The notes: generated by a model not told the origin, from the sequence alone. A DNA stretch of 64,000 nt from Dehalococcoidia bacterium (GCA_965226775.1 CBDDEI010000002.1:2278930-2342929), one strand, 5' to 3'. Positions 14,761 through 59,070 are shown, numbered from the stretch's first letter. Program-made: numbers and translations.

Positions 14761-17700
14761 ATGCGCAACAGCATCTTCACCAGCAGGGTAGCCGCACTGG
14801 CCCTCTTTGCCGTTGTTGGCTTTTTTGCCGCCCTCGCGCCCCCCATTGCATCCCTAAACCTGGCCCGCGCCCACTCGCCGGGCGGCGCCACCCTCACTGC
14901 GCTGTCGGTGACTGCGGGAGGGACGGCGCAAACGCTCTCCCCGACGTTTAGCAGCACGGTGACTGACTACACGGTCGCCGTGGCCAACACCGTGACCCAG
15001 ATCACCATCGAGGCCACGCCGGACGGCGACGGCACTGTGGCCTATCAGAACACGGACGGGACGACGCTTACGGACGCCGACACGAACACTGCCGGCCAGC
15101 AGGTGAACCTCCCCGCGGGGGACGACAAGCGCATCAACGTGGTGGTGACCCATACCGACAGCGGGACGACGACGACGCAGACCTACCGCGTGCTGGTGAG
15201 CCGCGAGGCGACGGACGACCCATGCGACGGCGGCGGCTACAACCCAACGCCCACGGCCGTCACGGTGGACACCGTGCCTATCGTGGTCGAGTCCACCACT
15301 GACGACTACTTTGTGCTCTACGTGAACCACGAAGTGAACGGCAGGGAGGTGGAGCTGCCGGTCCTGGTGAAGCGGGGCGAAGCCGGGACGACCGAGCTGG
15401 ACGAGAATATCGAGGCGCTGCCCCCGGAACGCTACCGGGTGGAGAAGTACCTCATCTCGGACCCGGCCGACGTCGATGGCGACTGCATCGACGACATCAC
15501 CGAGCTGGACGACTATGGGAAAATGAACCCGGTCAACTTCGCCGCGTCAATTGCCTTTAAGCACGGCACTGTCACCATTCCCGATCGCAGGACCTTCGAA
15601 CGGCTCTCTTACCAAGGTGATGATGTGCAGATTGACCAGCATCTCGCCGGTCTGGAGTACGTCAAGTTCTTCATCACCCGCATGAATTCCGACCAGCCAG
15701 CGGTCTATTTCATGAACACGGTTAGACACCGGTGTCACTGCACTTTTGCCCTCGCTGTCAATTTTACGTTCAGAAAAGGGATGCGCGGCGAGATCATCTA
15801 CCACCCCAATGTCGTGGCGCCGGACGGTTCGATAGGCGTCTACCGGTTCGAATTCGAGCCGGGGGATAACTATCCCTTTCGGGCTGTGCAATATGGGTAT
15901 GAGGTGCTGGCCGCCAGCATGCCGCTGCTTGAGAACAACCTAGCGTACTACCCGATGCCCTACCGCGCGCTACCGCGGTATCACAGAGAAAAGGAGCAGT
16001 ATGACGCCTCCCGGGTCAAAGTGTTGTTGGAAGAGGACATCTTACCCGATGTTGATTTCATCTCCCTCAACCAAGAGACCGGTTACGGGTTCTTGCGAGT
16101 CATGTCGCTGGACGAGCGTCCCTATCCTCGCGACATCGTGATCTATGACACGCTGCCCAACGACCTGCCACGGGTCGCCGGCATCATGACCACCGTGCCG
16201 CAAACGCCGCTCTCGCACGTCAACCTGCGCGCCGTGCAAGACGGCGTTCCCAATGCCTTTATCCGCGACGCCCTTGATGATGACACCATTGATGACCTGA
16301 TCGACAGCCACGTCCAATACACTGTCACGCAGGACGGCTACACCATCCGCGCGGCCAACAAGGCGGAAGTCGACGCCCACTACGAGGCTTCCCGCCCGAC
16401 CACGGCGCAGACGCCGGTGCGGAACCTCTCGGTCACCGAGATCACAGCGCTCAGCGATATCGGATTCGACGACTGGGATGCGTTCGGGGTGAAGGCGGCG
16501 AACGTGGCCGTGCTGGGGACGCTGGGGTTCCCGGCGGGCACCGTCCCCGACGGATTTGCCGTGCCCTTCTATTTCTACGACGAGTTCATGAAGGCCAACG
16601 ACCTCTATGCCATGGTCTCAACCATGCTGGCAGACTCCGACTTCCAGACGGACTACGACACACAGGAGGACGAGCTCAAGCAACTGCGCTCGGCCATAAA
16701 GGATGCAACCACGCCGGACAGGATCATCACCGCGCTTGAGGCTATGCACGCGGAGTTCCCGGACGGCACGTCACTGCGCTACCGCTCCAGCACCAACAAT
16801 GAGGACCTGCCGGGATTCAGCGGCGCCGGGCTGTACGACTCCAAGACGCAGGACCCCGACGAGACCGAGGAAGACGGGATCGACAAGTCGATCAAAGGGG
16901 TTTGGGCGAGCCTGTGGAACTTCCGCGCCTTTGTCGAACGTGACTTCCACCGCGTCGACCACTATGCGACGGCGATGGGAGTCCTGGTGCACCCCAACTA
17001 CTCAGACGAGCTGGTCAACGGCGTCGCCGTCAGTTTCGATCCCTTCAATGGCAGAGAGGGGAGCTACTACGTCAACAGCCAGGTCGGCGAGGACCTGGTC
17101 ACCAATCCCGACGCGCGCTCGATTCCAGAGGAACTCCTGTTGGGCCCGGTTGGGGGCACGTATGGGCCATTCACGATTCTTGGTACTTCCAACCAAGTAC
17201 CGGCTGGGCAACTCCTCATGACGGAAACTCAAATGGCCCAGTTACGTCAACACCTCGAGGTGATCCACGACCACTTCGCGGGGCTGTACGACCCTGTAGC
17301 CGGCAAACCGTTCGCCATGGAGATCGAGTTCAAGATCACCAGCGAGAATGTCCTGGCGATTAAGCAGGCCCGCCCCTGGGTCTTTGGCTCAGCAGAAACG
17401 GTAACCCCGCCGCCCACGAACCAGGCCCCTGTGTTCACGGATGGCGCAAGTACAACCCGCAGCGTGGCCGAAACCACCACCGCGGGCGTGAACATCGGCG
17501 CACCGGTCGCAGCCACCGACCCCGACAACGATCCCCTGACCTACAGCCTGGGCGGCGACCGATGCGGCCTCCTTCGACATCGTCGCGTCCTCCGGCCAGT
17601 TGCAGACCAAGCTCCCTCTGGACCGAGAGACCAAGGCCAGTTACTCCGTCACCGTGTCAGTCAGCGACGGCGACCCCGACACGGCGATCGACACCACGAC

Positions 17701-18998
17701 CACGGTGACGATCAACGTCACCACCACAACCACCGCCACTGCCACCGCTACCGCCACTGCCACTGCCACCGCCACAACCTCATCGGGGAGCAGGGGAGGA
17801 GGAGGAGGCCGCGGCCGCGCTACCCCAACGCCAACACCAACTCCGAGCCCAACGCCTACGGCGACACCAACCCCTACCGGACCGCAGTTCTCCGGCTTGA
17901 TTGCCGCTGAGCCCAGCGTGACCGCAACGGTGGTTCCTGAGGGCACTACCCTGGGCCTCAACGGCGGCGCAGACCTGCCAGGCGGCGTCTACGTGAACTT
18001 CCCGCCCACCGCAGTGGCCTTGCCGGTGCACGTGAGCGTCTCGGTGAGCAACGAAGCACCGAGCGACGTGGTTGCGCCCAGCGGCACCACCTCTGCTGCC
18101 GCTCACCATCGACATCACTCCGGAAACTCCCATCACCCTGGGCGAGCCGCTGACCATTGAAATCAACCCCACGCCGGAACAGCTGGAGGCCGCAGGCGGT
18201 GACCTGAACAACCTCTCCGTGGGCGTGGTGACCCCCAACGGCATTGTGGTGCTGCCCGCGCAGGTGATGCACGGCAGGCTGGTGGTGACCACCGACCGCC
18301 TCGCCCCCTTCGTCCTGTTAGCCATCACGGACACCGGCCCAGTTCTGACCCAGCCGCCTATGGGCGATGCCTCGTCCATGGGCCCGCTGCTGCAGTGGAC
18401 CCAACCGCCGCGCACTACCTGGTTCCAGGTGCAGGTGATCCCCTTCAATGAGGACGGCCCCGGCATCAACCTGGTTATCGGCGACCGCGCGCTGGTGCGC
18501 GCCGCGCAGTACCAGGTCCTGGGCCCCAACTTCGGCAGCGCCGACCCCAACTACGTGATGCTGCCCGGCATGACCTACCTCTGGCGGGTGCGCACTACCA
18601 CGGTGACCACGAACCCCACGGAGGACGACTGGAGCGCGTGGGCAGTGAGCAGCTTCAAGACACCGCCAGCCAGCAGCAGCACCATCACCCCGGTGGCGCC
18701 GCCGGCCTTTGCGGAGGTGAGCACGCTCACCCCGACGTTGACCTGGGCGAACTCCAACACCACCGTGTTCTACTACGAGGTGCAGGTTAGCAAGGACTAC
18801 GCGTTCGGGCCGAACGCCTTCCTCTACAGTGAGTACGTCCATGGCGGAGCCAGCACCCCGCCCAACAGCTACGTGGTGCCGGCAGCCTTCCCGCTAGAGG
18901 CAGGCGAGATCTACTACTGGCGCGTCCGGCCGCGGATTCAGGGCGACGGCGACCCGCTGCCGTGGAGCGCCACCTACGTGTTCCTAGCGCCGGGCTAG
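14761..18998 (+). CDS. Secreted multidomain protein: signal peptide, cadherin-like sandwich, unknown domain, phospho-His swivel-like motif, PEP-synthase/PPDK-type ATP-grasp domain, cadherin domain, shared C-terminal cassette; frameshifts ~17557 and ~18091
   Basis: Signal peptide MRNSIF...ARA-HS; TLTALSVT..LSPTFSSTVTDYTV (cadherin-like); TPLSHVNLRAVQDGVP (His at 16216); GVKAAN (Lys 16492); RSSTNNEDLPGFSGAGLYDS (16783); IEFKI...IKQARP; NQAPVF..ATDPDND cadherin. Pieces 17600-18160 and 18072-18998 continue in order. Confidence 0.8.
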
Positions 18999-20114: not shown

Positions 20115-23100
20115 ATGACCAGGATGCTCAGTCCGGCCAGACTGCTGCCGGCGGCGGGATGTGCCCTGCTCTGCCTAGTGCTGGCCCTGAGCTACGCCAG
20201 CGCGCAGACTCCTCCTGCCGCGCCTACCACCGACTCTGTAACTTCTGGCGATACCTCACTTACCGTGGCCTGGACCGCTCCCGCCGGCGAGACCGGCATC
20301 ACGGCCTACGACGTGCGTCACATCGAGACCAGCGCGGATGAGACGATGGACTCCAACTGGATCATCAAGGACAACGCCTGGACATCCAGCGCGCTGCAAT
20401 ATACCATCACCGGCTTGACCAACGGCACGGAGTACGACGTGCAGGTACGCGCGGTAAACTCTCACGGAGACGGGACCTGGTCAGACATCAAGACCGGTAC
20501 GCCGGCACTCCCTGCTCCCATTATAGATTCCGTGCGTGCCGATGACCGAGCCGTGCTGGTTTCCTGGAGCGCACCCACCGGCATCACCACCGGAGTCTCG
20601 GCTTACGACGTGCGCTACATCGAGACCAGCGCTGATAAGACGATGGACTCCAACTGGACTGTGGAGGAGGACGCCTGGGAAGAGGGCGACGGCAGCCTGG
20701 CCTACGCCGTCACCGGCCTGACCAACGGCACGGAGTACGACGTGCAGGTGCGCGCGGTGGACGAAAAAGATGTCGACGGCGCCTGGTCGGCCACAACCAG
20801 CGCAACTCCCGCGGACCACGGCAACACCCAGGCAGCAGCCACTACCGTCTCTCCTGGCGCCAGAGTGTGGGGAGCCATTGACCCCGCCGACGATGAAGAC
20901 TACTTCAGCTTTAGTGTGTCAAGGACAGCCGATTACTGGATATATACTTTAGGCGACCTGGATACCGTGGGTGAGCTGCTGGACGGTGACGGCATGTCCA
21001 TCGACATCAGCGATAGAGGCTCCGTGCTGCCCAACCCGGACAACTTCTTCCTGTGGCAAAGACTCCAGTCCGGGACGTACTACATCAAGGTAACCGGCTA
21101 CGGATCTACTGACGAACCATATGTCCTTAGGATCAGGGAGTTTAGGGACACAACTTCAAGGAGCAACGCGGCCACTCTGAATCTCAACGGCTCCGCAAGC
21201 GCCACCATAGACCCGGAAGACGACGAAGACTACTTCAAGCTGGAGCTTTCCGAGACAACGGAAGTTGCCATTCGCGCCTCCGGGTACCCAGACACCGTTG
21301 GTGAGCTGCAAAGGAGCAACGGCACGGTAATTGCCTCCAACGATGACGGCTTTCTCTCTGGCGGCTGGACGAACTTTCTCATCCGGGAGAGCCTAAACGC
21401 CGGGGTGTACTACGTCAAGGTCAGCTCTTTCGCAAGTAGTTCCGATGGTCCATACACAGTATATGCTACGGCTATAACCGAGCCGGGCAGCGCCATCGCC
21501 GACGCTCAGCCGCTGACCCTCGGCGGTACCGCAGGCGGAATCATAGACCCGGCCGGCGACGAGGATTACTTCAGCCTGACCCTCGAAGAGACAACGTACG
21601 TGATAATCGGTGGAGCGGGCGAAGTCGTTAATATCAGCGGCGATCTGACCGATGAAAACGACCTCGCTGCCCCGGTAGACTCAGTTCACTTTAACCACTT
21701 ATTCTTCTTCCAGGGCAGATTGGACGCGGGCACATACTACTTGAAGGTGACGGGCAAGGACGCCACGGAAACAGGGCGTTACACCGTCAGGGCTATTGTG
21801 GAGAGCAGCTACACTTATTTTGTAAACCGCTGCTCCAACATCCCAACCAGCAGCAGCATCAACGACCCGCTCTACGGATGCCAGTGGCACCTGAAGAACA
21901 ATGACCAGTTCCGCAACAGTGGTGGGCATGACATACGCGTCGAGGAGGTATGGCCCACCTACACAGGCTCCGGCATCAACGTGGCAGTGGTGGACGATGG
22001 AATGCACTACTGGCACGAGGACCTGACCGGCAATGTCCTCACCTCCTTCAATCACAACTATGACCCCGACCTGACCGACATCTACCATCCATTCGAGGAC
22101 CACGGCACCGCGGTGGCCGGGCTCATCGCGGCGAAGGACAACAGCCTTGGCATGCGCGGCGTAGCCCCCGAGGCCAAGATATACGGTTACAATTATCTGG
22201 TGGTAGATACCGTGGCCAACGCGGCGGACGCAATGTCTCGCAACGCGGCGACCACGGCCATTTCCAACAACAGCTGGGGGCCTGGGGATTACGGTCGCCC
22301 GGAACCTGCCCCTGAGCTGTGGGAGACTGCGGTCAAGCATGGCGTCACCACCGGATACGACGGGAAAGGCGTCTTCTACGCGTGGGCTGCCGGCAACGGA
22401 GGAGACCGCGACGACTACTCCACTCTGGACGAGTTAGCGAACTTCTATGCCGTGACGGCAGTCTGCGCTGTCGGGCACGACGACATTAGAAGCGACTACT
22501 CGGAAGCAGGCGCAAACCTGTGGGTGTGCGGGCCGTCCAGCAGCGGGAGGGATGGCCAGCCCCGAATAGCCACCACCGATAACGGACACCGGTATAGGGG
22601 CAGTTTTGGCGGCACCAGCGCCGCCACTCCCATCGTATCCGGCGTCGTCGCGCTGGTGCGCGAGGCCAACAGCGCGTTGACGTGGCGGGACGTCAAGCTC
22701 ATCCTGGCGGCCTCCGCCCGCAAGAACGACCCAGATAACACCGGCTGGGTGGAAGGCGCTTTCAAGTACGGGTCGAGCACGGACCGCTACAACTTCAACC
22801 ACGAGTACGGCTTCGGCATGGTGGACGCCAAGGCGGCCACGGACCTGGCTCCGGGCTGGACCAACGTACGCGACTTGAGGGAAATCACCTCCGAATCCGG
22901 CGTCATCAACCTGCCAATCCCCGACTTCCCGTCATCCGGTACGCCTACCACCGTAACCACCAACCTGACCATCGACCCGTTTGTGGAGTTCGTCGAGTTT
23001 GTGGAGGTCAACGCCCACTTCTTCCACGCTAACTTCCGGGACCTGACCGTTGAGCTGGTCTCGCCCTCAGGGACCGTTTCAACGCTGTCCACTACCGCCC

Positions 23101-26100
23101 TTAGATTCGGGTCGTTGACCTACAAGTTCCGCTTTGGTTCGGCCCGACATCTGGGCGAGGACGCGGCCGGCGAGTGGACGTTGCGGATTAAAGACCTGGA
23201 AAGAGTTGATACAGGAGCTCTCAGGTCGTGGGGTCTCACCATCTACGGTCATGGCTTCGTTCCCGGCGAGCCTGAAATCGACGTTGTGACTCCGGGTGGA
23301 GGCACACTCGAAATTGACTGGAAAGCGCCGACCGACACAGGGGAGACTGCCATCACCTCCTACGACCTGCGCTATATCCGAGATGACGTCACCGACAGGA
23401 GCGATGACAACTGGTCTGTGGTGACGGGCGTGGGGACGCCGAGCAACCGGAGCTACACCATCACCGGACTGAGCGGCGGAGTTAAGTACGATTTCCAACT
23501 CCGTGCCCACAACGATTCCGGACACGGCCCCTGGTCCCTAGGGGAAGCTGACGAGCCCACCACGGTCAAGCCGGCCGCACCGGCCATTACCGACGTCACT
23601 CGCAGCGATAGGACACTGGCGGTCGTCTGGACGGCCCCCGCTGACACGGGTGGCGGGGTCACAGCCTACGACGTGCAGTACATCGAGACCAGCGAAGACG
23701 AGACGATGGAAGCCAACTGGACGGTACGGGACAACGCCTGGAGAAGCGGTGACCTTAGATATATCATCTCCAATCTCACAAACGCGACGGAGTACGACGT
23801 ACAGGTGCGGGCCGTCAACTCCGCAGGGGATGGAGCATGGTCTGGCACAGAGACCGGCACGCCGCTGCCGGATGACATACCCATAACGTTGCAGTGGGAA
23901 GAGACCTCTATTGAAGTGGCCGAGAACGCCGGGAGCATAGTCCTGAGGGCAGTAGTCACAACCACACTGGACGCGCCGCCGGAGGCTGACTTCACCTTCG
24001 ATGTGACACTGACCACCACCGATACCGGCACGACCCAAGGCGACGACTACACGGCTCCGCCTTCGTCCGCAACCTTTGTCGCGAGCGACTTCAGCCAGAC
24101 CGACGTGAACGGCCAGCAGCGCTACCGCGCCACCAGGGATTTCACCGTGGCTATCATAGACGACACCGCGGATGAATCGAATGAATCATTCAGGGTAAGG
24201 CTGGCCTACCTGACTCCCGGCCTCACGCATCTCCAGGGAGGCCCCTCTACCGCAGTCGTCACAATCCAGGACAACGAACACGTTCCAGTTACTATCAGCT
24301 GGGAACAGCCGGATCTAACGGTCAGTGAGAACACCGGAAACGCCACCCTGCGCGCTTACGCCATCACCACGGTGGACAAGCGGCCTGAAGACGGGTTCGC
24401 CTTCGACGCCTCCATCTATACGTCTGACGGCAGCGCGACCCAGCCCGGCGACTATACGCGGGTGGACGATACCGTCACTTTCAGCCGGACCGACTTCAGC
24501 CGGGTAACCATCAACGGCGAACGACGCTATCGCGCCGCAAAGCAAGTGCCTGTGCCCATTCAGGATGACACATCCGACGAAGACGAGGAGGACTTCACGG
24601 CAACCATTGAGTACGCGAATCCCGGCCCGCTTCACCTGCAGGGCGGACCAGCCGTGATGACTGTAAAGATCACCGACAACGACTTCGTACCCGTCACCAT
24701 CAGCTGGGAACAGCCGTTGGTGAGCGTCGACGAGGATGCGACAACGGTCACCCTGCAGGCCAGGGCTACCACCACGTCGGACAAAATGCCGGAGAGCGGT
24801 TTCACCGTCGCGCTGTCCGCGGCGACGGCCGGCGACACCGCCACCCGAGGCTCGGACTATCGGAGGCTGACCAGCAACTTCCGCTTCAGCCAGGGCGACT
24901 TCACGCGCGTAGAGGTGGGGGGCCAATTCCGCTTCCAGGCAACCAAGGACATCAGCGTCTCCATCATCAATGACACCGCCGACGAGCCGGACGAGGACTT
25001 CACGGTAACCCTGAGCTACTCCAACCCAAGCCTCCCTCATCTACAGGGAGGTCCCGCCACTACGACGGTGACCATTACTGATAACGACCACGTGCCCGTG
25101 GTCCTGAGTTGGGAGCAGGCGGCGGTGACGGCCGAAGAAGCCACGAGTCCTGGGAGCACGCGCCCCGTCTCCCTGCGCGCCGTCGCCGTCACCACCAAGG
25201 ACAAGATGCCGGAGAGCGGCTTCACCTTCGACGTAACCGTAGCCACCGCAGATGACAGCGCAACCCAACCCGCCGACTACCTGCGGTTGTCCGACACGGC
25301 GACCTTCAACCGGAGTGATTTCAGCCTGGCGACCGTCAGCGGCCAGCGGCGTTACCGCGCGGTGAAGACCTTCACGGTATCCGTCACTCACGACACCCTC
25401 CAGGAACCCAACGAGACCTTCACTGTGACCCTGGCCTACGCCGACTCCAGTCTGCCTCACCTGCTAGGGGGAAGGGACACGGCGACGGCGACGGTGACCA
25501 TCACCGACGACATATCATCTACTGTGGACTTGAGTACAACGGTATCCGGCTCGCCCTTCCGTGTCTCCCGAGGCGAGGAGTTGACCTACGACTACACAGT
25601 CAGTAACTCCGGCCCGGCTGCATCGACAAACACGGTTGTGACGAGCACGCTCGACCGCGGCGTGAGCTTCGTGTCGGCTACTCCCGCTGACAAGTGCGCC
25701 CACTCGGGAGGAGCGACCGGCGGCGTGGTCACCTGTAGGTTCGATGCCCTGAATTCGGGCGCAAGCGAGGCAGGCGAGATCGTGGTGCAGGTCGGGCCAG
25801 CGGCATCCGCGGACATCGCCATAACCTCCGTAGCCACTGGCAACGAGCTGGACCGCAGTCCGGGGGACAACACGGCCACCGCGTTCACCGAACTCCTTGC
25901 CCCGCCCGAGCAGGTGACGAATCTGTCACCTGCTCGGAGCGGCGTCGATTTCATCGAACTATCGTGGGCCACGCCCGCAGACAATGGCAGCCCCATCACC
26001 CGTTACGAGCTGGAACGCAAGGAGGCCGGCGAGAGCTATGTCCCCATCAATCCCGGACCTAGCGCCGCGGCTACAACGTACCTGGACAGCCAGGTGCCGG

Positions 26101-27432
26101 CTGGAACGACCTACACCTACCAGTTGCGCGCCGTCAACGCCGACGGCGACGCCGAATGGTCCAACGAGGCGACCGCAACCGCTAGGGAAACCCGGCCTCC
26201 ACCTACTCCTGGGCCGCGCGGCGGCGGGGGAGGAGGTGGGGGTCGCTCTGCCCAAACGCCAACACCAACGCCTACACCGAGCCCAACGCCTACGGCGACA
26301 CCAACGCCTACCGGACCGCAGTTCTCCGGCCAGATTGCCGCGGAGCCCAGCGTGACTGCAACGGTGGTTCCTGAGGGCACCACCCTCGGCCTTAACGGCG
26401 GTGGAGACCTGCCAGGCGGCGTCTACGTGAACTTCCCGCCCACCGCAGTGGCCTTGCCGGTGCACGTGAGCGTCTCGGTGAGCAACGAAGCACCGAGCGA
26501 CGTGACTGCGCCAAGCGGCACTACCCTGCTGCCCTTAACCATCAACATCACCCCGGAAACGCCCCTCACCCTGGGCGAGCCGCTGACCATTGAGATAAAC
26601 CCCACGCCGGAACAGCTGGAGGCCGCAGGCGGTGACCTGAACAACCTCTCCGTGGGCGTGGTGACCCCCAACGGCATTGTGGTGCTGCCCGCGCAGGTGA
26701 TGCACGGCAGGCTGGTGGTGACCATCGACCACCTCTCCACCTTCGTCCTGTTGCCATCACCGACCCCGGCCCGTTCTGACGCAGCCGCCGATGGGCGATG
26801 CCTCGTCCATGGGGCCGCTGCTGCAGTGGACCCAACCGCCGCGCACTACCTGGTTCCAGGTGCAGGTGATCCCCTTCAATGAGGACGGCCCCGGCATCAA
26901 CCTGGTTATCGGCGACGGCGCGCAAGTGCGCCGCGCAGTACCAGGTCCTGGGCCCCAACTTCGGCAGCGCTGACCCCAATTACGTGATGCTGCCCGATAT
27001 GACCTACCTCTGGCGGGTGCGCACTACCACGGTGCTGACGAACCCCACGGAGGCAGACTGGAGCGCGTGGGCAGTGAGCAGCTTCAAGACGCCGCCGGCC
27101 AGCAGCAGCACCATCACCCCGGTGGCGCCGCCGGCCTTTGGGAGGTGAGCACGCTCACCCCAACGTTGACCTGGGCGAACTCCAACACCGCCGTGTTCTA
27201 CTACGAGGTGCAGGTAAGCAAGGACTACGCGTTCGGGCCAAACGCCTTCCTATATAGTGAGTACGTGCATGGCGGAGCCAGCACCCCGCCCAACAGCTAC
27301 GTGGTGCCGGAAGCCTTCCCGCTAGAGGCAGGCGAGATCTACTACTGGCGGGTGCGGCCGCGGATTCAGGGCGACGGCGACCCGCTGCCGTGGAGCGCCA
27401 CCTACGTGTTCCTAGCGCCGCCGGGCCAGTAG
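20115..27432 (+). CDS. Giant secreted kexin-like S8 protease A: signal peptide, 2 FN3, 3 PPC-like, S8, P-domain, 2 FN3, 4 Calx-beta-like, DUF11, FN3, shared cassette; small indels at 26750-27145
   Basis: Catalytic D (VVDDG, 21993), H (DHGTAVAG, 22101), oxyanion N (AAGNG, 22395), S (GTSAATP, 22617); HEYGFGMVDA; P-domain FVEVN..DLTVELVSPSG..GEWTLRI..WGLTIYG; TEYDVQVRAV FN3 repeats; VTITDND Calx-beta ends. Confidence 0.9.
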
Positions 27433-27730: not shown

Positions 27731-29671
27731 GTGGGACGTCGGAGCGAAGTATCCAACTCTACCTGGGCATCTGTGGCGGCGCTGCTGCTGGGCGCGCTGA
27801 CGGTGATGTTTGGCCTCCAGCTTATGCGGATGCTCTTCGTGGGGATGGCAGTCTACCTGACTCAGGTCCAGGACATCAGCTCGATTTTGGTGGGCGTCAT
27901 GGGTCTGGCCGTGTTCCTGTGCGGATTGCTGGAGCCCCTCGTGCGCCGAGTTCTCGGGTTCCGGAATGCCTTACCAATAGTCGTGGGCAGTCTGTCGCTG
28001 GTTTGGCTGGCCGAAAAGCTCGTCTTATCTCTTCCCGTGGACCTCGGCCTCTCCATCGCCGGTACGGTGCTGTTCCTGTGGTCCTTGCCGCTCCTGTTTC
28101 GGTCGCTCCGAACGCCGGGAGGCCACGGCAGCGCCGCTCATGCCGTGATCGCCTTCATGGTGGGCATTTCTGCCGATACCGCGGTCAAGGGCATCTTCGG
28201 CACCATCGACCTCTCGTGGGTGCAAGGAGTTGCGGGATACAGCGTCGTTTTTGGTTTGGTTGCCGCCCAAGGGTTCCTTCTGTGGCAATTCGCATCGCAT
28301 AGGAGCCAAGAGCAGGAACAAGGGCCCGCTGCCTCAGCCATGTCCTATTTGGCCTTCGGTCCGGCGCTGGCATTGCAGTTCCTACTGTTCCAGAACGTTG
28401 CCCAACAGACCGTGCTCATCGGCTGGCCGCAACCCGCGGTGTACGCCTGGATTCTTACAGCCAACCTCATTGGGGTTGCGATCGCTGTGGAGCTGACGAG
28501 ATGGGGCAGACACCCATCCTGGCCAGTACTGGCGCTGATCGGAGGGCTGCTGATCGCGATGGTAGCAGTCGATCAGTCTGGCTTGGCAGCGGCCCTAGTA
28601 GTGCTAGCCGGCCAGGTGGTCATTGCCGTCTCCCTGGTGTCCGTCGTCAAGGCGGCACGAGAACCCATCGTCGAACATTCGAACCGCGGTATTTCTATTT
28701 GGATGGGCGTTGGCATGGTAGTTATGCTGATGTTGCTCTTCATCTATTACGCAAGCTACGATACCAACGTCTTGGTGCCAAAGGAGGCCGTGCGTCCCCT
28801 AGCCGCACTGTTGATTGGTCTGGCGGCGCTTTGGGCCAGTTTAGCGAGCCACACTGTTGGAGCGCCGGTAACCAGGGCGGCCAGCATCCCTGCACTGCTC
28901 CTGCTGTTACTCCCATTGGTCTCTCTGGCGATGTGGAAGGACGTGCAGCCGGCTCCGGGCGCAGGATTCCCTGTTAAGGTTATGTCCTACAACCTCCACC
29001 AGGGATTCGACGTCTATGGAAGCCACGGAATGGAGAACCTGGCCAGGGTCATAGAGGCCGAAGACCCGGACATCATCGCGTTGCAAGAGGTATCAAGAGG
29101 CTGGGTCGTCAACGGTTCTGTCGATATGCTGGTATGGCTCTCACAGCGTCTCGAAATGAACTACGCGTGGGGTCCGGCAGCAGATTCGGTGTGGGGCAAC
29201 GCAGTCCTCAGCAAACGCCCGATTACCGGGTTCCAGAACCATGAGATGCCCAACAACGGCGTACTTCGCCTCGACCGGGCGTTCCTGGTAGCGGAGGTCG
29301 ACGTGGGTGGCGGAGAGGCGCTTGAGGTAGTAGCTACTCACTTCCACAACGACGAGGACGACTCAGCGATCAGGGTGCCGCAGGCGCGGGCGGTACTGGA
29401 GGCTACCGGCAGCGACCGGGCTACCGTCTTGATTGGAGACTTCAACGCCCACCCCGATCACCCGGAGATGCTGCTGATTGCCGGCGCCGGCCTCAACGAT
29501 ACCTTCGTCGCTTCTGGAGCAACGGGGGACGGCTTTACCTTTCCCACCGACGCTCCCTGGCGCCGCATTGATTACATTTGGGCCAGCCCCAACTTGAAGG
29601 CGCGAGACTTTTCTATCCCCAACAGCCTAGCCTCGGATCACTTCGCCGTGGCGGTAACGCTCTACCGGTAA
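27731..29671 (+). CDS. Multi-TM protein with C-terminal endonuclease/exonuclease/phosphatase domain (CWH43/PGAP2IP-like architecture)
   Basis: About 400 aa of consecutive hydrophobic helices, then MSYNLHQGF, LQEV, GDFNAHP, IDYIW and SDHFAV EEP motifs. Confidence 0.85.
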   Translation: MGRRSEVSNSTWASVAALLLGALTVMFGLQLMRMLFVGMAVYLTQVQDISSILVGVMGLAVFLCGLLEPLVRRVLGFRNALPIVVGSLSLVWLAEKLVLSLPVDLGLSIAGTVLFLWSLPLLFRSLRTPGGHGSAAHAVIAFMVGISADTAVKGIFGTIDLSWVQGVAGYSVVFGLVAAQGFLLWQFASHRSQEQEQGPAASAMSYLAFGPALALQFLLFQNVAQQTVLIGWPQPAVYAWILTANLIGVAIAVELTRWGRHPSWPVLALIGGLLIAMVAVDQSGLAAALVVLAGQVVIAVSLVSVVKAAREPIVEHSNRGISIWMGVGMVVMLMLLFIYYASYDTNVLVPKEAVRPLAALLIGLAALWASLASHTVGAPVTRAASIPALLLLLLPLVSLAMWKDVQPAPGAGFPVKVMSYNLHQGFDVYGSHGMENLARVIEAEDPDIIALQEVSRGWVVNGSVDMLVWLSQRLEMNYAWGPAADSVWGNAVLSKRPITGFQNHEMPNNGVLRLDRAFLVAEVDVGGGEALEVVATHFHNDEDDSAIRVPQARAVLEATGSDRATVLIGDFNAHPDHPEMLLIAGAGLNDTFVASGATGDGFTFPTDAPWRRIDYIWASPNLKARDFSIPNSLASDHFAVAVTLYR

Positions 29672-55700: not shown

Positions 55701-58700
55701 GAACGGCAGCGCGACCCAGCCCGGCGACTATACGCAGGTGGACGATACCGTCACGTTCAGCCGGAACGACTTCAGCCAGACCGACGTGAACGGCCAGCAG
55801 CCGCGCAACCAGGGACCGTAGCCATCATAGACGACACCGCGGATGAATCGAACGAAGCCTTCAAACTGGCCTACCTGACTCCCGGCCTCACGCATCTCCA
55901 GGGAGGCCCCTCTACCGCAGTCGTCACAAAAGACAACGAACACGTGCTCAGCTGGGAACACTCGGACGTAACGGTTGAGAACGCCGGAAGCGACTGCGCG
56001 CCTACGCCGTCACCACCGTGGACAAGCGGCCTGAAGACGGGTTCTCCTTCGACGCCTCCATCTCTAGTCTAACGGCAGCGCGGCCCAGCCCGGCGACTAT
56101 ACGCAGGTGGACACCGTCACGTTCAGCCGGAACGACTTCAGCCGGGTGACCATCAACGGCCAACCCCGCTATCGCGCCGCTAAGCAAGTGCCTGTGCCCA
56201 TTCAGGATGACACACGACTGCGAGGAGGCGTAACCATTGAGTACGCGAATCCCAGGCCCGCTTCATGCAGGGCGGACCAGCCAAGCGTAACGATCACCGA
56301 CAACGACTTCGTACCCGTCACCCTCAGCTGGGAACAGCCGTTGGTGAGCGTCGACGAGGATGCGCTAACGGTCACCCTGCAGGCCCGGGCTACCACCACC
56401 TCGGACAAAATGCCGGAGAGCGGTTTCACCGTCCCCCTGTCCGCGACGACGGCCGGCAACACCGCAACCGAAGGCTCAGACTATCGGAGGCTGACCAGCA
56501 GCTTCAGCTTCCGCCAGGGCGACTTCACGCGCACAGACGTGGGGGGCGGCCAATTCCGCTTCCAGGCAACCCGGGACATCAGCGTCTCCATCATCAATGA
56601 CACCGCCGACGAGCCGGACGAGGGCTTCACGGTAATCCTGAACTACTCCGACCCAAGCCTCCCCCATCTACAGGGAGGTCCCGACACTGCGACGGTGACC
56701 ATCGCCGACAACGACCACGTGCCCGTGGTCCTGAGTTGGGAGCAGGCGGCGGAGACGGCCGAAGAAGCCACCAGCCCTGGGAGCACTAACCCCGTCTCCC
56801 TGAGCGCCGTCGCCATCACCACTAAGGACAAGAGGCCGGAGAGCGGCTTCTCCTTCGACGTAACCGTAGCCACCGCAGACGGCAGCGCAACCCAACCCGC
56901 CGACTACCTGCGGTTGTCCGACACGGAGACCTTCGACCGGAGTGATTTCAGCCCGGCGACCGTCAGCGGCCAGCGACGTTACCGCGCGGTGAAGACCTTC
57001 ACGGTACGCGTAACTCACGACACCGTCCAGGAACCCAACGAGACCTTCACGGTGACCCTGGCCTACGCCGACCCCAGTCTGCCGCACCTGCAAGGTGGAA
57101 GGGACACGGCGACGGTGACCATCACCGACGACATATCATCTATCGTGGACTTGAGTACAACGGTATCCGGCTCGCCCTTCCGTGTCTCCCGAGGCGATGA
57201 GTTGACCTACGACTACACCGTCACGAACTCCGGCCCGGCTGTATCGACAAACACGGTTGTGAGGAGCACGCTCGACCGGGGCGTGAGCTTCGTGTCGGCT
57301 ACTCCCGCTGACAAGTGCGCCCACTCGGGAGGAGCAACCGGCGGCGTGGTCGCCTGTACGTTCGATACCCTGGATGCGAGTGCAAACGAGGCCGGCGAGA
57401 TCTTGGTGCGGATCGGGCCAGCGGCATCCGCGGACATCGCCATTACCTCCATAGCCACTAGCAACGAGCTCGACCGCAGTCCGGGGGACAACACGGCCAC
57501 CGAGTTCACCGAACTCTTTGCCCCGCCCGAGCAGGTGACGAATCTGTCACCCATCCGGAGCAGCGTCGATTTCATCGAACTGTCGTGGGCCACGCCCGCA
57601 GACAATGGCAGCCCCATCACCCGTTACGAGCTGGAACGCAAGGAGGCCGGCGAGAGCTATGCCCCCATCAATCCCGGACCTAGCGCCGCGGCTACAACGT
57701 ACCTGGACAGCCAGGTGTCGGCTGGAACGACCTACACCTACCAGTTGCGCGCCGTCAACGCCGACGGCGACGCCGAATGGTCCAACGAGGCGACCGCAAC
57801 CGCTGGGGGAACCACGCCTACGGCGACGGCGACACCGACGCCGCGCAGCGGCGGGGGAGGCGGCGGCGGCGGCAGCAGCAGCTCTGCCCAAACGCCAACC
57901 CCAACCCCAACACCGAGCCCAACGCCTACGGCGACCCCAACGCCTACCGGACCGCAGTTCTCCGGCGTGATTGCCGCGGAGCCCAGCGTGACTGCAACGG
58001 TGGTTCCCGAGGGCACTACCCTGGGCCTTAACGGCGGTGGAGACCTGCCAGGCGGCGTCTACGTGAACTTCCCGCCCACCGCAGTGGCCTTGCCGGTGCA
58101 CGTGAGCGTCTCGGTGAGCAACGAAGCACCGAGCGACGTGACAGCGCCCAGCGGCACTACCCTGCTGCCGCTTGACCATCGACATCATCCCGGAAACGCC
58201 CCTCACCCTGGGCGAGCCGCTGACTATTGAGATAAACCCCACGCCGGAACAGCTGGAGGGCCGTACGCGGTAACCTGAACAACCTCGCCGTGGGCGTGGT
58301 GACTCCCCAATGGCATTGTGGTGCTGCCCGCGCAGGTGCTGCACGGCAGGCTGGTGGTGACCATCGACCACCTCTCCACCTTCGTCCTGTTGGCCATCAC
58401 CGACCCCGGCCCGATCCTGACCCAGCCGCCTATGGGCGATGCCTCGTCCATGGGGCCGCTGCTTAAGTGGACGCAGCCGCCGCGCACTACCTGGTTCCAG
58501 GTGCAGGTGATCCCCTTCAATGAGGACGGCCCCGGCATCAACCTGGTTATCGGCGATGGCGCGCTGGTGCGCGCCGCGCAGTACCAGGTCCTGGGCCCCA
58601 ACTTCGGCAGCGCTGACCCCAACTACGTGATGCTGCCCGACATGACCTACCTCTGGCGGGTGCGCACTACCACGGTGACCACGAACCCCACGGAGGACGA

Positions 58701-59070
58701 CTGGAGCGCGTGGGCGGTGAGCAGCTTCAAGACCCCACCGGCCAGCAGCAGCACCATCACCCCGGTGGCGCCGCCGGCCTTTGGGCAGGTGAGCACGCTC
58801 ACCCCGACGTTGACCTGGGCGAACTCCAACACCGCCGTGTTCTATTACGAGGTGCAGGTAAGCAAGGACTACGCGTTCGGGCCGAACGCCTTCCTCTACA
58901 GTGAGTACGTCCACGGCGGAGCCAGCACCCCGCCCAACAGCTACGTGGTGCCGGCAGCCTTCCCGCTAGAGGCGGGCGAGATCTACTACTGGCGGGTGCG
59001 ACCGCGGATTCAGGGTGACGGCGACCCGCTGCCGTGGAGCGCCACCTACGTGTTCTTGGCGCCGGGATAG
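49744..59070 (+). CDS. Giant secreted kexin-like S8 protease B, same architecture as A but with about 9 Calx-beta-like modules; indels at 55790-56290 and 58170-58320
   Basis: D (VVDAG, 51634), H (NHGTAVAG, 51742), AAGNG, S (GTSAATP, 52267); P-domain; pieces 49744-55821, 56107-58230 and 58318-59070 are collinear with protease A. Confidence 0.88.
53941..55790 (+). repeat. 810-bp intragenic tandem repeat (two Calx-beta-like modules per unit), about 2.3 units
   Basis: (C/G)CCGTCACCCTCAGCTGGGAACAG recurs at 53941, 54751 and 55561 with near-identical intervening sequence. Confidence 0.9.

Follow-up and report, generated by a model that had tools for sequence, protein, structure and literature searches.

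What would a histidine-swivel dikinase be doing outside the cell? The question is raised by a gene on the plus strand of a 64,000-nt stretch of a Dehalococcoidia bacterium genome (the window, meaning the whole stretch that was analysed), where positions 14761-18998 had been predicted, in an earlier reading of the DNA, to encode an exported, permuted dikinase resembling phosphoenolpyruvate (PEP) synthase and carried on a surface stalk. To our knowledge, the histidine-swivel dikinases (PEP synthase, PPDK, GWD, rifampin phosphotransferase and the phenol dikinases) are all confined to the cytoplasm or the plastid because they spend ATP. Our analysis of sequence and predicted structure indicates that the gene product is probably an exported multi-domain protein, of which a conserved head of 750 residues constitutes a complete histidine-swivel dikinase. 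The family to which it belongs is very large, undescribed and unnamed, with no published description found in full-text searches of PMC open-access articles and bioRxiv.

Frame 1 has an uninterrupted run of 1049 codons (P0001), starting with the ATG at 14761 and ending at 17910. Its first 932 residues contain, in this order, a signal-peptide-like N-terminus, a cadherin-like domain, a 280-residue module, a swivel-type His domain and a complete ATP-grasp domain of the PPDK_N type, and these 932 codons are intact in the window copy. The motifs on which the original prediction was built were found where it had placed them: LSHVNLRAVQDGVP at 16210-16251 (with the His codon at 16216), GVKAAN at 16486, RSSTNNED and SGAGLYDS at 16783-16842, and IEFKI and KQARP at 17323-17376. 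The pyruvate-binding TIM barrel was also correctly said to be missing, as no PEP-utilizers_C (PF02896) match was obtained in any frame piece.

The ATP-grasp (AMP/ATP-binding) domain at 16483-17409 was identified from both profile and PDB matches. PF01326, the PPDK_N profile proposed earlier as a check, aligned to residues 575-883 over profile positions 4-319 of 328, with 93.5 bits against a cut-off of 27. Among the NCBIfam models, those for PEP synthase ranked first (NF005057, 76 bits vs an equivalog cut-off of 598), followed by rifampin phosphotransferase (NF041857, 52.7 bits vs a cut-off of 999), all of them scoring well short of their equivalog cut-offs and matching through the N-terminal ~220 residues of those enzymes. 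Sequence matches in the PDB were likewise to PEP synthase (9dae, 2ols) and rifampin phosphotransferase. A first AlphaFold2 (AF2) model, which covered the whole core with 30 close homologues and had an overall pLDDT of 61, was used only for its Foldseek match to the ATP-binding domain of rifampin phosphotransferase (5hv6, E 1.9e-6). The catalytic residues were mapped by alignment to rifampin phosphotransferase, combined with a motif comparison to the ordinary PPDK that is encoded elsewhere in the same genome. K22, R117 and T136 of rifampin phosphotransferase correspond to K578 (GVKAAN), R675 (YRSS) and S694 (LYDS), and the acidic/Gln/Arg cluster MQDIEF...LQTR of the PPDK corresponds to MEIEF...KQAR (E854, E856, Q869 and R871), with E854/E856 as the equivalents of the Mg ligand E297 of rifampin phosphotransferase. 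K22, R117, T136 and E297 have roles in nucleotide and Mg binding in that enzyme (PMC4844700). The columns of K578, R675, S694, E854/E856, Q869 and R871 are invariant or nearly so among the 30 homologues. Judged from these residues, the head appears to be catalytically competent.

The region ahead of the ATP-grasp, residues 150-560 (411 residues, hereafter the N-module), had no Pfam match, even with E allowed to reach 10. It was modelled by AF2 with a 55-sequence alignment, and the model is confident (pLDDT 90.7, pTM 0.73). When searched against the PDB by Foldseek, it gave significant matches only to full-length rifampin phosphotransferase chains (5hv1, 5hv2, 5fbt and 5fbu; probability 0.99-1.0, E 3e-3 to 8e-3, 116-159 columns), and none of the other matches was better than E 0.15 or probability 0.5. 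Because the query contained no ATP-grasp and the matches are about as long as a swivel domain with its linkers, they support a swivel fold within the N-module; the tool does not print the aligned residues, and the match is presumably to the putative swivel phospho-His segment. This segment (16057-16395; residues 433-545) is a beta/alpha domain of ~110 residues. Its His486 (codon 16216-16218) lies 90 residues before the ATP-grasp and is kept in 53 of the 55 diverse members, while R490 is kept in all 55. The claim of a phospho-His swivel domain ahead of the ATP-grasp is thus backed by structure prediction and Foldseek; the swivel assignment of the His segment stood at the level of the fold, through rifampin phosphotransferase, but not at the level of sequence, where PF00391 gave no match.

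The conserved core begins with a small beta-sandwich followed by an acidic loop, DPADVDGDCIDDITE (15223-15510; AF2 pLDDT >90). In this loop (DxDxDGDCxDDxxE), no variation was seen at D237, D239, D241 or D245, and 53 of the 55 sequences have E248; the loop probably binds Ca. Cys155 and Cys242 are both present in 37 sequences of the same set, and the N-terminal Cys is missing from all 8 sequences in which position 242 is Gly, a co-variation that suggests a probable disulfide. The alpha/beta domain that follows (15553-16050; residues 265-430; pLDDT 80-97) coincides with the stretch at 15560-16050 that had been left unassigned in the original prediction, and it is confidently modelled as what appears to be a new fold. 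Its residues Y316, N319, H326, Y347, S417, R418 and D426 are each conserved in 49-54 of the 55 sequences, and such conservation of polar residues suggests a ligand site. We infer that this novel N-terminal domain, presumed to bind the acceptor, selects an acceptor that is extracellular.

The N-terminus of the window protein (MRNSIFTSRVAALALFAVVGFFAALAPPIASLNLARA followed by HS; 14761-14874) resembles a Sec-type signal peptide. Its basic residues are accompanied by a hydrophobic core 17 residues long (12-mer hydrophobicity peaking with 2.72 at residue 9) and by ARA before HS, and close homologues have the same start; the predicted signal peptide is in this way borne out, by a hydrophobicity scan only. 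In most complete family members a hydrophobic h-region is followed by AxA and then Q, the classic signal peptide pattern. Next in the window protein comes a cadherin-like beta-sandwich (PF12733; 14893-15207, residues 45-149; E 2.1e-11, 44.5 bits vs a cut-off of 24.2). Across the family, the domains flanking the head include cadherin, FN3, Ig-like, Calx-beta and PQQ-type sugar dehydrogenase domains, and a few members carry SLH or CW_binding_2. Because of the Sec signal, the covarying Cys pair, the invariant acidic loop and the adhesin-type flanks, we place the chemistry outside the cytoplasm. In P0014, P0073, P0081 and P0088, the dikinase head is fused to a PQQ-type soluble glucose/sorbosone dehydrogenase domain (PF07995), and these fusions are a weak hint of sugars or glycans as the relevant substrates.

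Downstream of the head, a cadherin repeat (PF00028) at 17425-17716 was identified by profile match (26.7 bits, slightly below the cut-off of 28.8) and strain comparison. At 17557 an extra base (GGC[G]ACC) breaks it, and the reading passes out of frame 1 into frame 2, in which T/A-rich and G-rich linkers of low complexity follow (17717-17842). After these come a PT linker and a C-terminal cassette of ~385 residues (17843-18998; one beta-sandwich and two FN3/Ig-like domains, with a weak match to Ig_Rha78A_N under the Pfam cut-off). Within this last region, directly after ...APSGTT (18091), another extra base at 18092 (ACC[T]CTG) shifts frame 2 to frame 3. The genome contains ~15 copies of the cassette at 85-97% protein identity on different large genes, among them the tails of both window subtilases (~26277-27420 and ~57913-59067), and about half of the copies are frame-disrupted. 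Because one and the same tail is attached to different enzymes, the cassette may be a general module for sorting or anchoring. This shared cassette makes the surface stalk of the original prediction plausible but unproven, since none of the known anchors (LPXTG, transmembrane segment or SLH) was found in the window protein; surface anchoring is therefore the presumed rather than the observed state. The close copies lie at C2:1-37600, 1396900-1405300 and 2297000-2359300, with distant copies (40-77%) elsewhere in the genome, and they may be homogenised by recombination.

The search with the core returned at least 120 proteins among the matches listed, at 61-99% identity (nearly all above 65%) and with more than 89% of the core covered. 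Searching with the N-module gave 1601 clusters (50% identity), of which 423 had E up to 1e-30; the module was nearly always aligned end to end, and sometimes twice in the same protein. In contigs representing one genome per species, at least 586 loci encode the family, and the phylum breakdown, tree and neighbourhood described here refer to the best 80 of these (56-80% identity). These 80 loci are from metagenome-assembled genomes (MAGs) of Chloroflexota (53), Actinomycetota (12) and Acidobacteriota (10), plus Latescibacterota, Binatota and Thermodesulfobacteriota. They include Candidatus (Ca.) Poriferisodalis, Ca. Poriferisocius and Ca. Aldehydirespirator, together with further MAG series which we take to be sponge-derived. 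Poriferisodalaceae and Aldehydirespiratoraceae are documented sponge-symbiont families (PMC11706023).

When phyla are mapped onto a maximum-likelihood tree built from 81 heads, at least 18 label changes are needed, compared with a minimum of 5. When 60 relatives of the Dehalococcoidia genome from the same class were examined, the module was present in only one of 55 genera, that of the bacterium itself. The mixing of phyla and the patchy distribution among genera indicate repeated horizontal transfer. No conserved neighbour gene was found across the 80 loci, and the gene stands alone. One subgroup (P0164, P0203, P0239, P0259, P0260 and P0262) lacks both cysteines of the putative disulfide and has Gly at 242; its N-termini are free of low complexity, with a composition that is Bacteroidota-like by eye. 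Based on this subgroup, the family may reach beyond the sponge-symbiont lineages that dominate the top matches.

The genome of the bacterium itself carries four paralogous heads (66-73% identity) in addition to its one ordinary PPDK, and three of the four have frame changes. Three of the paralogues (C2:15189-17942, C2:24300-26666 and window 14761-17556) and most of the cassette copies would fall within ~90 kb if contig C2 were circular or its ends joined; they would then form a surface-protein island straddling the contig ends. Also among large surface-protein genes, 9 kb downstream of the dikinase gene, is an open reading frame (ORF) of 646 residues (window 27731-29671) with a C-terminal Exo_endo_phos nuclease/phosphatase domain.

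How might the exported head work? Rifampin phosphotransferase, PEP synthase and GWD serve as analogues, and the mechanism that we consider reasonably likely is that of an exported three-site histidine-swivel dikinase, in which the ATP-grasp would load His486 with the beta-phosphate, AMP and Pi would be released, and the swivel would deliver the phosphate to an acceptor hydroxyl held by the novel domain. In such a cycle, Mg-ATP would first be bound by the C-terminal ATP-grasp. Its beta-phosphate would then be attacked by His486 on the mobile swivel domain with release of AMP, the gamma-phosphate would go to water, and the phospho-His domain would swing to the novel alpha/beta domain, where the phosphate would be passed to a bound, hydroxyl-bearing acceptor. 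What the sequences show is the content and order of the domains, the conserved catalytic residues, the export signals and the phylogenetic pattern; catalysis, the source of ATP and the nature of the acceptor are inferred from these. Because many members come from sponge-symbiont lineages in several phyla, the acceptor most likely belongs to the host matrix or to the symbiont's own surface, as a polymer or a small molecule, with ATP supplied by host tissue. An extracellular ATP-dependent phosphotransferase, as the original prediction had it, is still the best and a fairly probable reading, with the ATP-binding residues and the His conserved family-wide, although the surface attachment that went with it is a presumption.

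A number of observations weigh against this reading. The His segment was matched by neither PF00391 nor PF22973 at E up to 10, and its hhalign comparison with the genome's own PPDK gave no match; aligned by hhalign to the GWD1 His domain, its loop is in register, but the score is weak (E 0.02, probability 2%). For the acceptor-side alpha/beta domain and beta-sandwich, no recognisable relative was found by Pfam (E up to 10) or by Foldseek against the PDB, and neither relatives of the acceptor domain nor neighbour genes gave a pointer to the substrate (80 loci, PDB and the GWD1 comparison). The ATP-grasp half of the first AF2 model is poor (pLDDT <50), and visual inspection and hydrophobicity were the sole basis for calling the signal peptides. 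Little ATP is available outside cells, and for most of the MAGs a sponge origin is deduced from names and naming series rather than metadata. Finally, the window copy itself is frame-disrupted in its stalk.

The last point bears on whether the window copy, one of four paralogues, is a decaying pseudogene that gives no functional full-length protein, which we regard as possible but doubtful. The span predicted as a single gene (14761-18998) has its head intact and all motifs in place, but it is not one ORF: the stalk is broken twice, so that the span is read in frame 1, frame 2 (from 17557) and frame 3 (from 18092 to 18998), and the last 118 codons of frame 1, up to 17910, are an out-of-frame, Arg/His-rich nonsense sequence after ...TYSLGG (17556). 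DNA alignment with strain L088 (ENA ERZ21829562; ~98% identical, i.e., ~2% base difference across the gene) identified the G at 17557 and the T at 18092 as extra bases, and the L088 protein (P0082) reads through both points without interruption (...SLGGTDAASFDIV...). In L088 the gene has two single-base changes of its own, at 16022 and 18320 in window numbering, and none of the four lies in a homopolymer run. Over the 14 kb shared by the two strains, the dikinase gene thus has four frameshifting indels as compared to none in 2.5 kb of response-regulator phosphatase and RidA genes, and nearby ORFs of 6.8 kb and 6.1 kb show no break. These differences, with two frameshifting insertions outside homopolymers in one strain and two different ones in the other while the housekeeping neighbours have none, speak for decay.

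On the other side, synonymous changes dominate between the two strains, and the ratio of nonsynonymous to synonymous substitution rates (dN/dS) against L088 is 0.16 in the stalk (frame 2) and 0.18 in the tail (frame 3), the same as in the head (0.18). Based on these values, the shifted frames were under purifying selection until very recently, which disfavours an old pseudogene. The 932-codon head is uninterrupted, and a product ending at 17910 would retain the signal peptide and the whole head. Both disruptions also fall in sequence of which the genome has many copies, which raises the chance of consensus errors; they are either very recent or errors of this kind. Programmed +1 frameshifting is ruled out, since the ~98% identical strain simply does not have the two bases and has different disruptions of its own. 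In the same strain comparison, subtilase A (window 20115-24000 vs L088 10121-14010) differs by 11.8%, with several indels and a dN/dS of 0.32, compared to 1-2% for the flanking genes; this marks it as either a surface protease that evolves fast or a copy that has recombined.

If the head is active, the His relay could also serve an ecto-ATP pyrophosphatase that passes both phosphates to water (ATP + 2 H2O -> AMP + 2 Pi), thereby quenching extracellular-ATP signalling of the host or scavenging phosphate and nucleotides, with the N-terminal domain being structural or regulatory. Such a half-reaction can stand alone, as rifampin phosphotransferase mutants that are unable to phosphorylate rifampin keep wild-type ATP pyrophosphatase rates (PMC4844700). 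Extracellular ATP could come from host tissue, Foldseek recognised no acceptor-type fold, and the Exo_endo_phos nuclease/phosphatase gene 9 kb downstream would fit as well. Yet conservation in the 280-residue N-module is as strong as in the catalytic domains, which is hard to explain without a ligand, and simpler ecto-nucleotidases exist, so that we consider this alternative unlikely.

Pyruvate phosphate dikinase runs in reverse in some organisms, and a swivel His might also work without ATP as its phosphate source, moving phosphate from an extracellular donor (a phosphorylated glycan, polyphosphate or a phospho-metabolite) to AMP/Pi or another acceptor. This would remove the paradox of ATP supply, and it has a precedent in HpeH, which on its own transfers phosphate between the phospho-product and another substrate without ATP (PMC12167813). 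However, the entire ATP-grasp is conserved, including the Lys and Arg that position the triphosphate, making ATP outside the cell has no obvious benefit, and no candidate for the donor is known; we therefore hold this alternative to be quite improbable. An effector taken up by sponge cells (e.g., by phagocytosis) and using host cytosolic ATP on a host molecule would likewise solve the ATP problem and would agree with the presence of the family in symbiont lineages and with cadherin and FN3 flanks like the eukaryote-like adhesion domains typical of sponge symbionts, but it is the least probable of the alternatives, as no translocation domain or secretion-system signal was recognised, the probable disulfide and Ca-binding loop suit extracellular rather than cytosolic conditions, and some members have the cell-wall-binding SLH or CW_binding_2.

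Returning to the exported dikinase, what makes the family of interest is a selectively maintained, complete dikinase head that is routinely fitted with export signals and adhesin-type domains, is present in four copies in a 2.4 Mb genome, and has apparently moved among at least six phyla, with many of its members in sponge-symbiont lineages. If active outside the cell, it would represent a new kind of extracellular phosphorylation chemistry in animal-microbe symbiosis. As a tentative extension, these proteins might be the first true ecto-dikinases and a horizontally traded symbiosis factor of sponge-associated prokaryotes, which, displayed outside the cell, would use host extracellular ATP to phosphorylate a component of the sponge matrix or cell surface by way of the acceptor domain with its novel fold, or convert signalling ATP to AMP. 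Such an activity could alter host recognition, digestion or tolerance of the bacterium and, if true, would offer a concrete way to test how a symbiont modifies its host or hides from it.

Which of the known dikinases does this family resemble? Alpha-glucan,water dikinase (GWD1), which like phosphoglucan,water dikinase (PWD) occurs in plants and algae, was compared using retrieved sequences (A. thaliana GWD1, P0264, 1399 residues, and a 60-sequence GWD1 alignment). It shares the domain order of the window protein, with N-terminal binding modules, GWD1_pHisD at 942-1055 and a C-terminal PPDK_N at 1196-1398 (Pfam on P0264; PMC6805951), where the window protein has its His domain at 433-545 and PPDK_N at 575-883. 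The novelty implied by calling the protein permuted thus does not hold, because the His-before-ATP-grasp order already exists in GWD1 and two-component dikinases would show the same order if fused. The His loops are also alike (LSHVSVRA in GWD1 and LSHVNLRA in the window protein, i.e., LSHV-x-[LV]-RA), and both are without the GG loop T/SxxGGxxxH of PEP synthase, rifampin phosphotransferase and HpeH (PMC12167813). In the ATP-grasp, GEDLEGYAGAGLYDS of GWD1 resembles NEDLPGFSGAGLYDS of the window protein, with the common motif NEDLxGxxGAGLYDS (E 1.4e-5), and the two domains are 24% identical over 223 residues.

The resemblance to GWD1 has clear limits. Aligning the whole N-module and its first 285 residues to the 60-sequence GWD1 alignment by hhalign gave nothing beyond the His loop, and the window protein, unlike GWD and PWD, has no Pfam matches to CBM45, CBM20, Ig_N_CWD1, DUF7067 or PF22973. 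GAGLYDS lies ~120 residues further downstream in the GWD1 ATP-grasp than in that of the window protein. In P0264, the canonical RSS..ED nucleotide-binding strand is degenerate (KSSDMPWPGDEGE, ~1185-1200), and a well-conserved copy, FRSDSNGEDLEGYAGAGLYDS, occurs ~120 residues downstream (1308-1337), a pattern in the sequence that suggests an internal rearrangement of the GWD ATP-grasp not shared by the bacterial family. GWD is also plastidial and acts on starch, whereas the window family is prokaryotic and, judging by its signal peptides, exported.

Rifampin phosphotransferase (RPH-Lm; PDB 5FBS/5FBT/5HV1) gave the only significant fold matches, both for the ATP-grasp and, presumably through its His domain, for the N-module. 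It is a small-molecule dikinase with a swivelling His that yields AMP, Pi and the phosphorylated acceptor (PMC4844700). Its domain order is different, however (ATP-grasp, rifampin-binding domain and then His), it is cytoplasmic, and the 116-159 columns aligned out of 411 are too few for a His domain together with a rifampin-binding-type domain. In HpeHI, CreHI and PpsAB (phenylphosphate synthase), which act on hydroxyl acceptors, substrate-binding and swivel domains are on one component and the ATP-grasp on the other (PMC12167813), and fusing them in that sequence would give the order of the window protein. In contrast, these are separate cytoplasmic polypeptides with a rifampin-binding-type substrate domain, which the N-module does not seem to be, given the few columns aligned by Foldseek and the published description of these enzymes, and their swivel loop is T/SxxGGxxxH as compared to TVPQTPLSH, with no GG, in the window protein.

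PEP synthase and PPDK provide the best sequence matches for the ATP-grasp, with the same order of motifs and G-[VI]-P at the same offset after the His, but the window protein is without their TIM barrel and has its His domain before rather than after the ATP-grasp. The family of the window protein hence falls outside those of PEP synthase, rifampin phosphotransferase and GWD. It is a new branch of the dikinase superfamily, distinct from all the named families and, in its presumed way of working, most like GWD or rifampin phosphotransferase.

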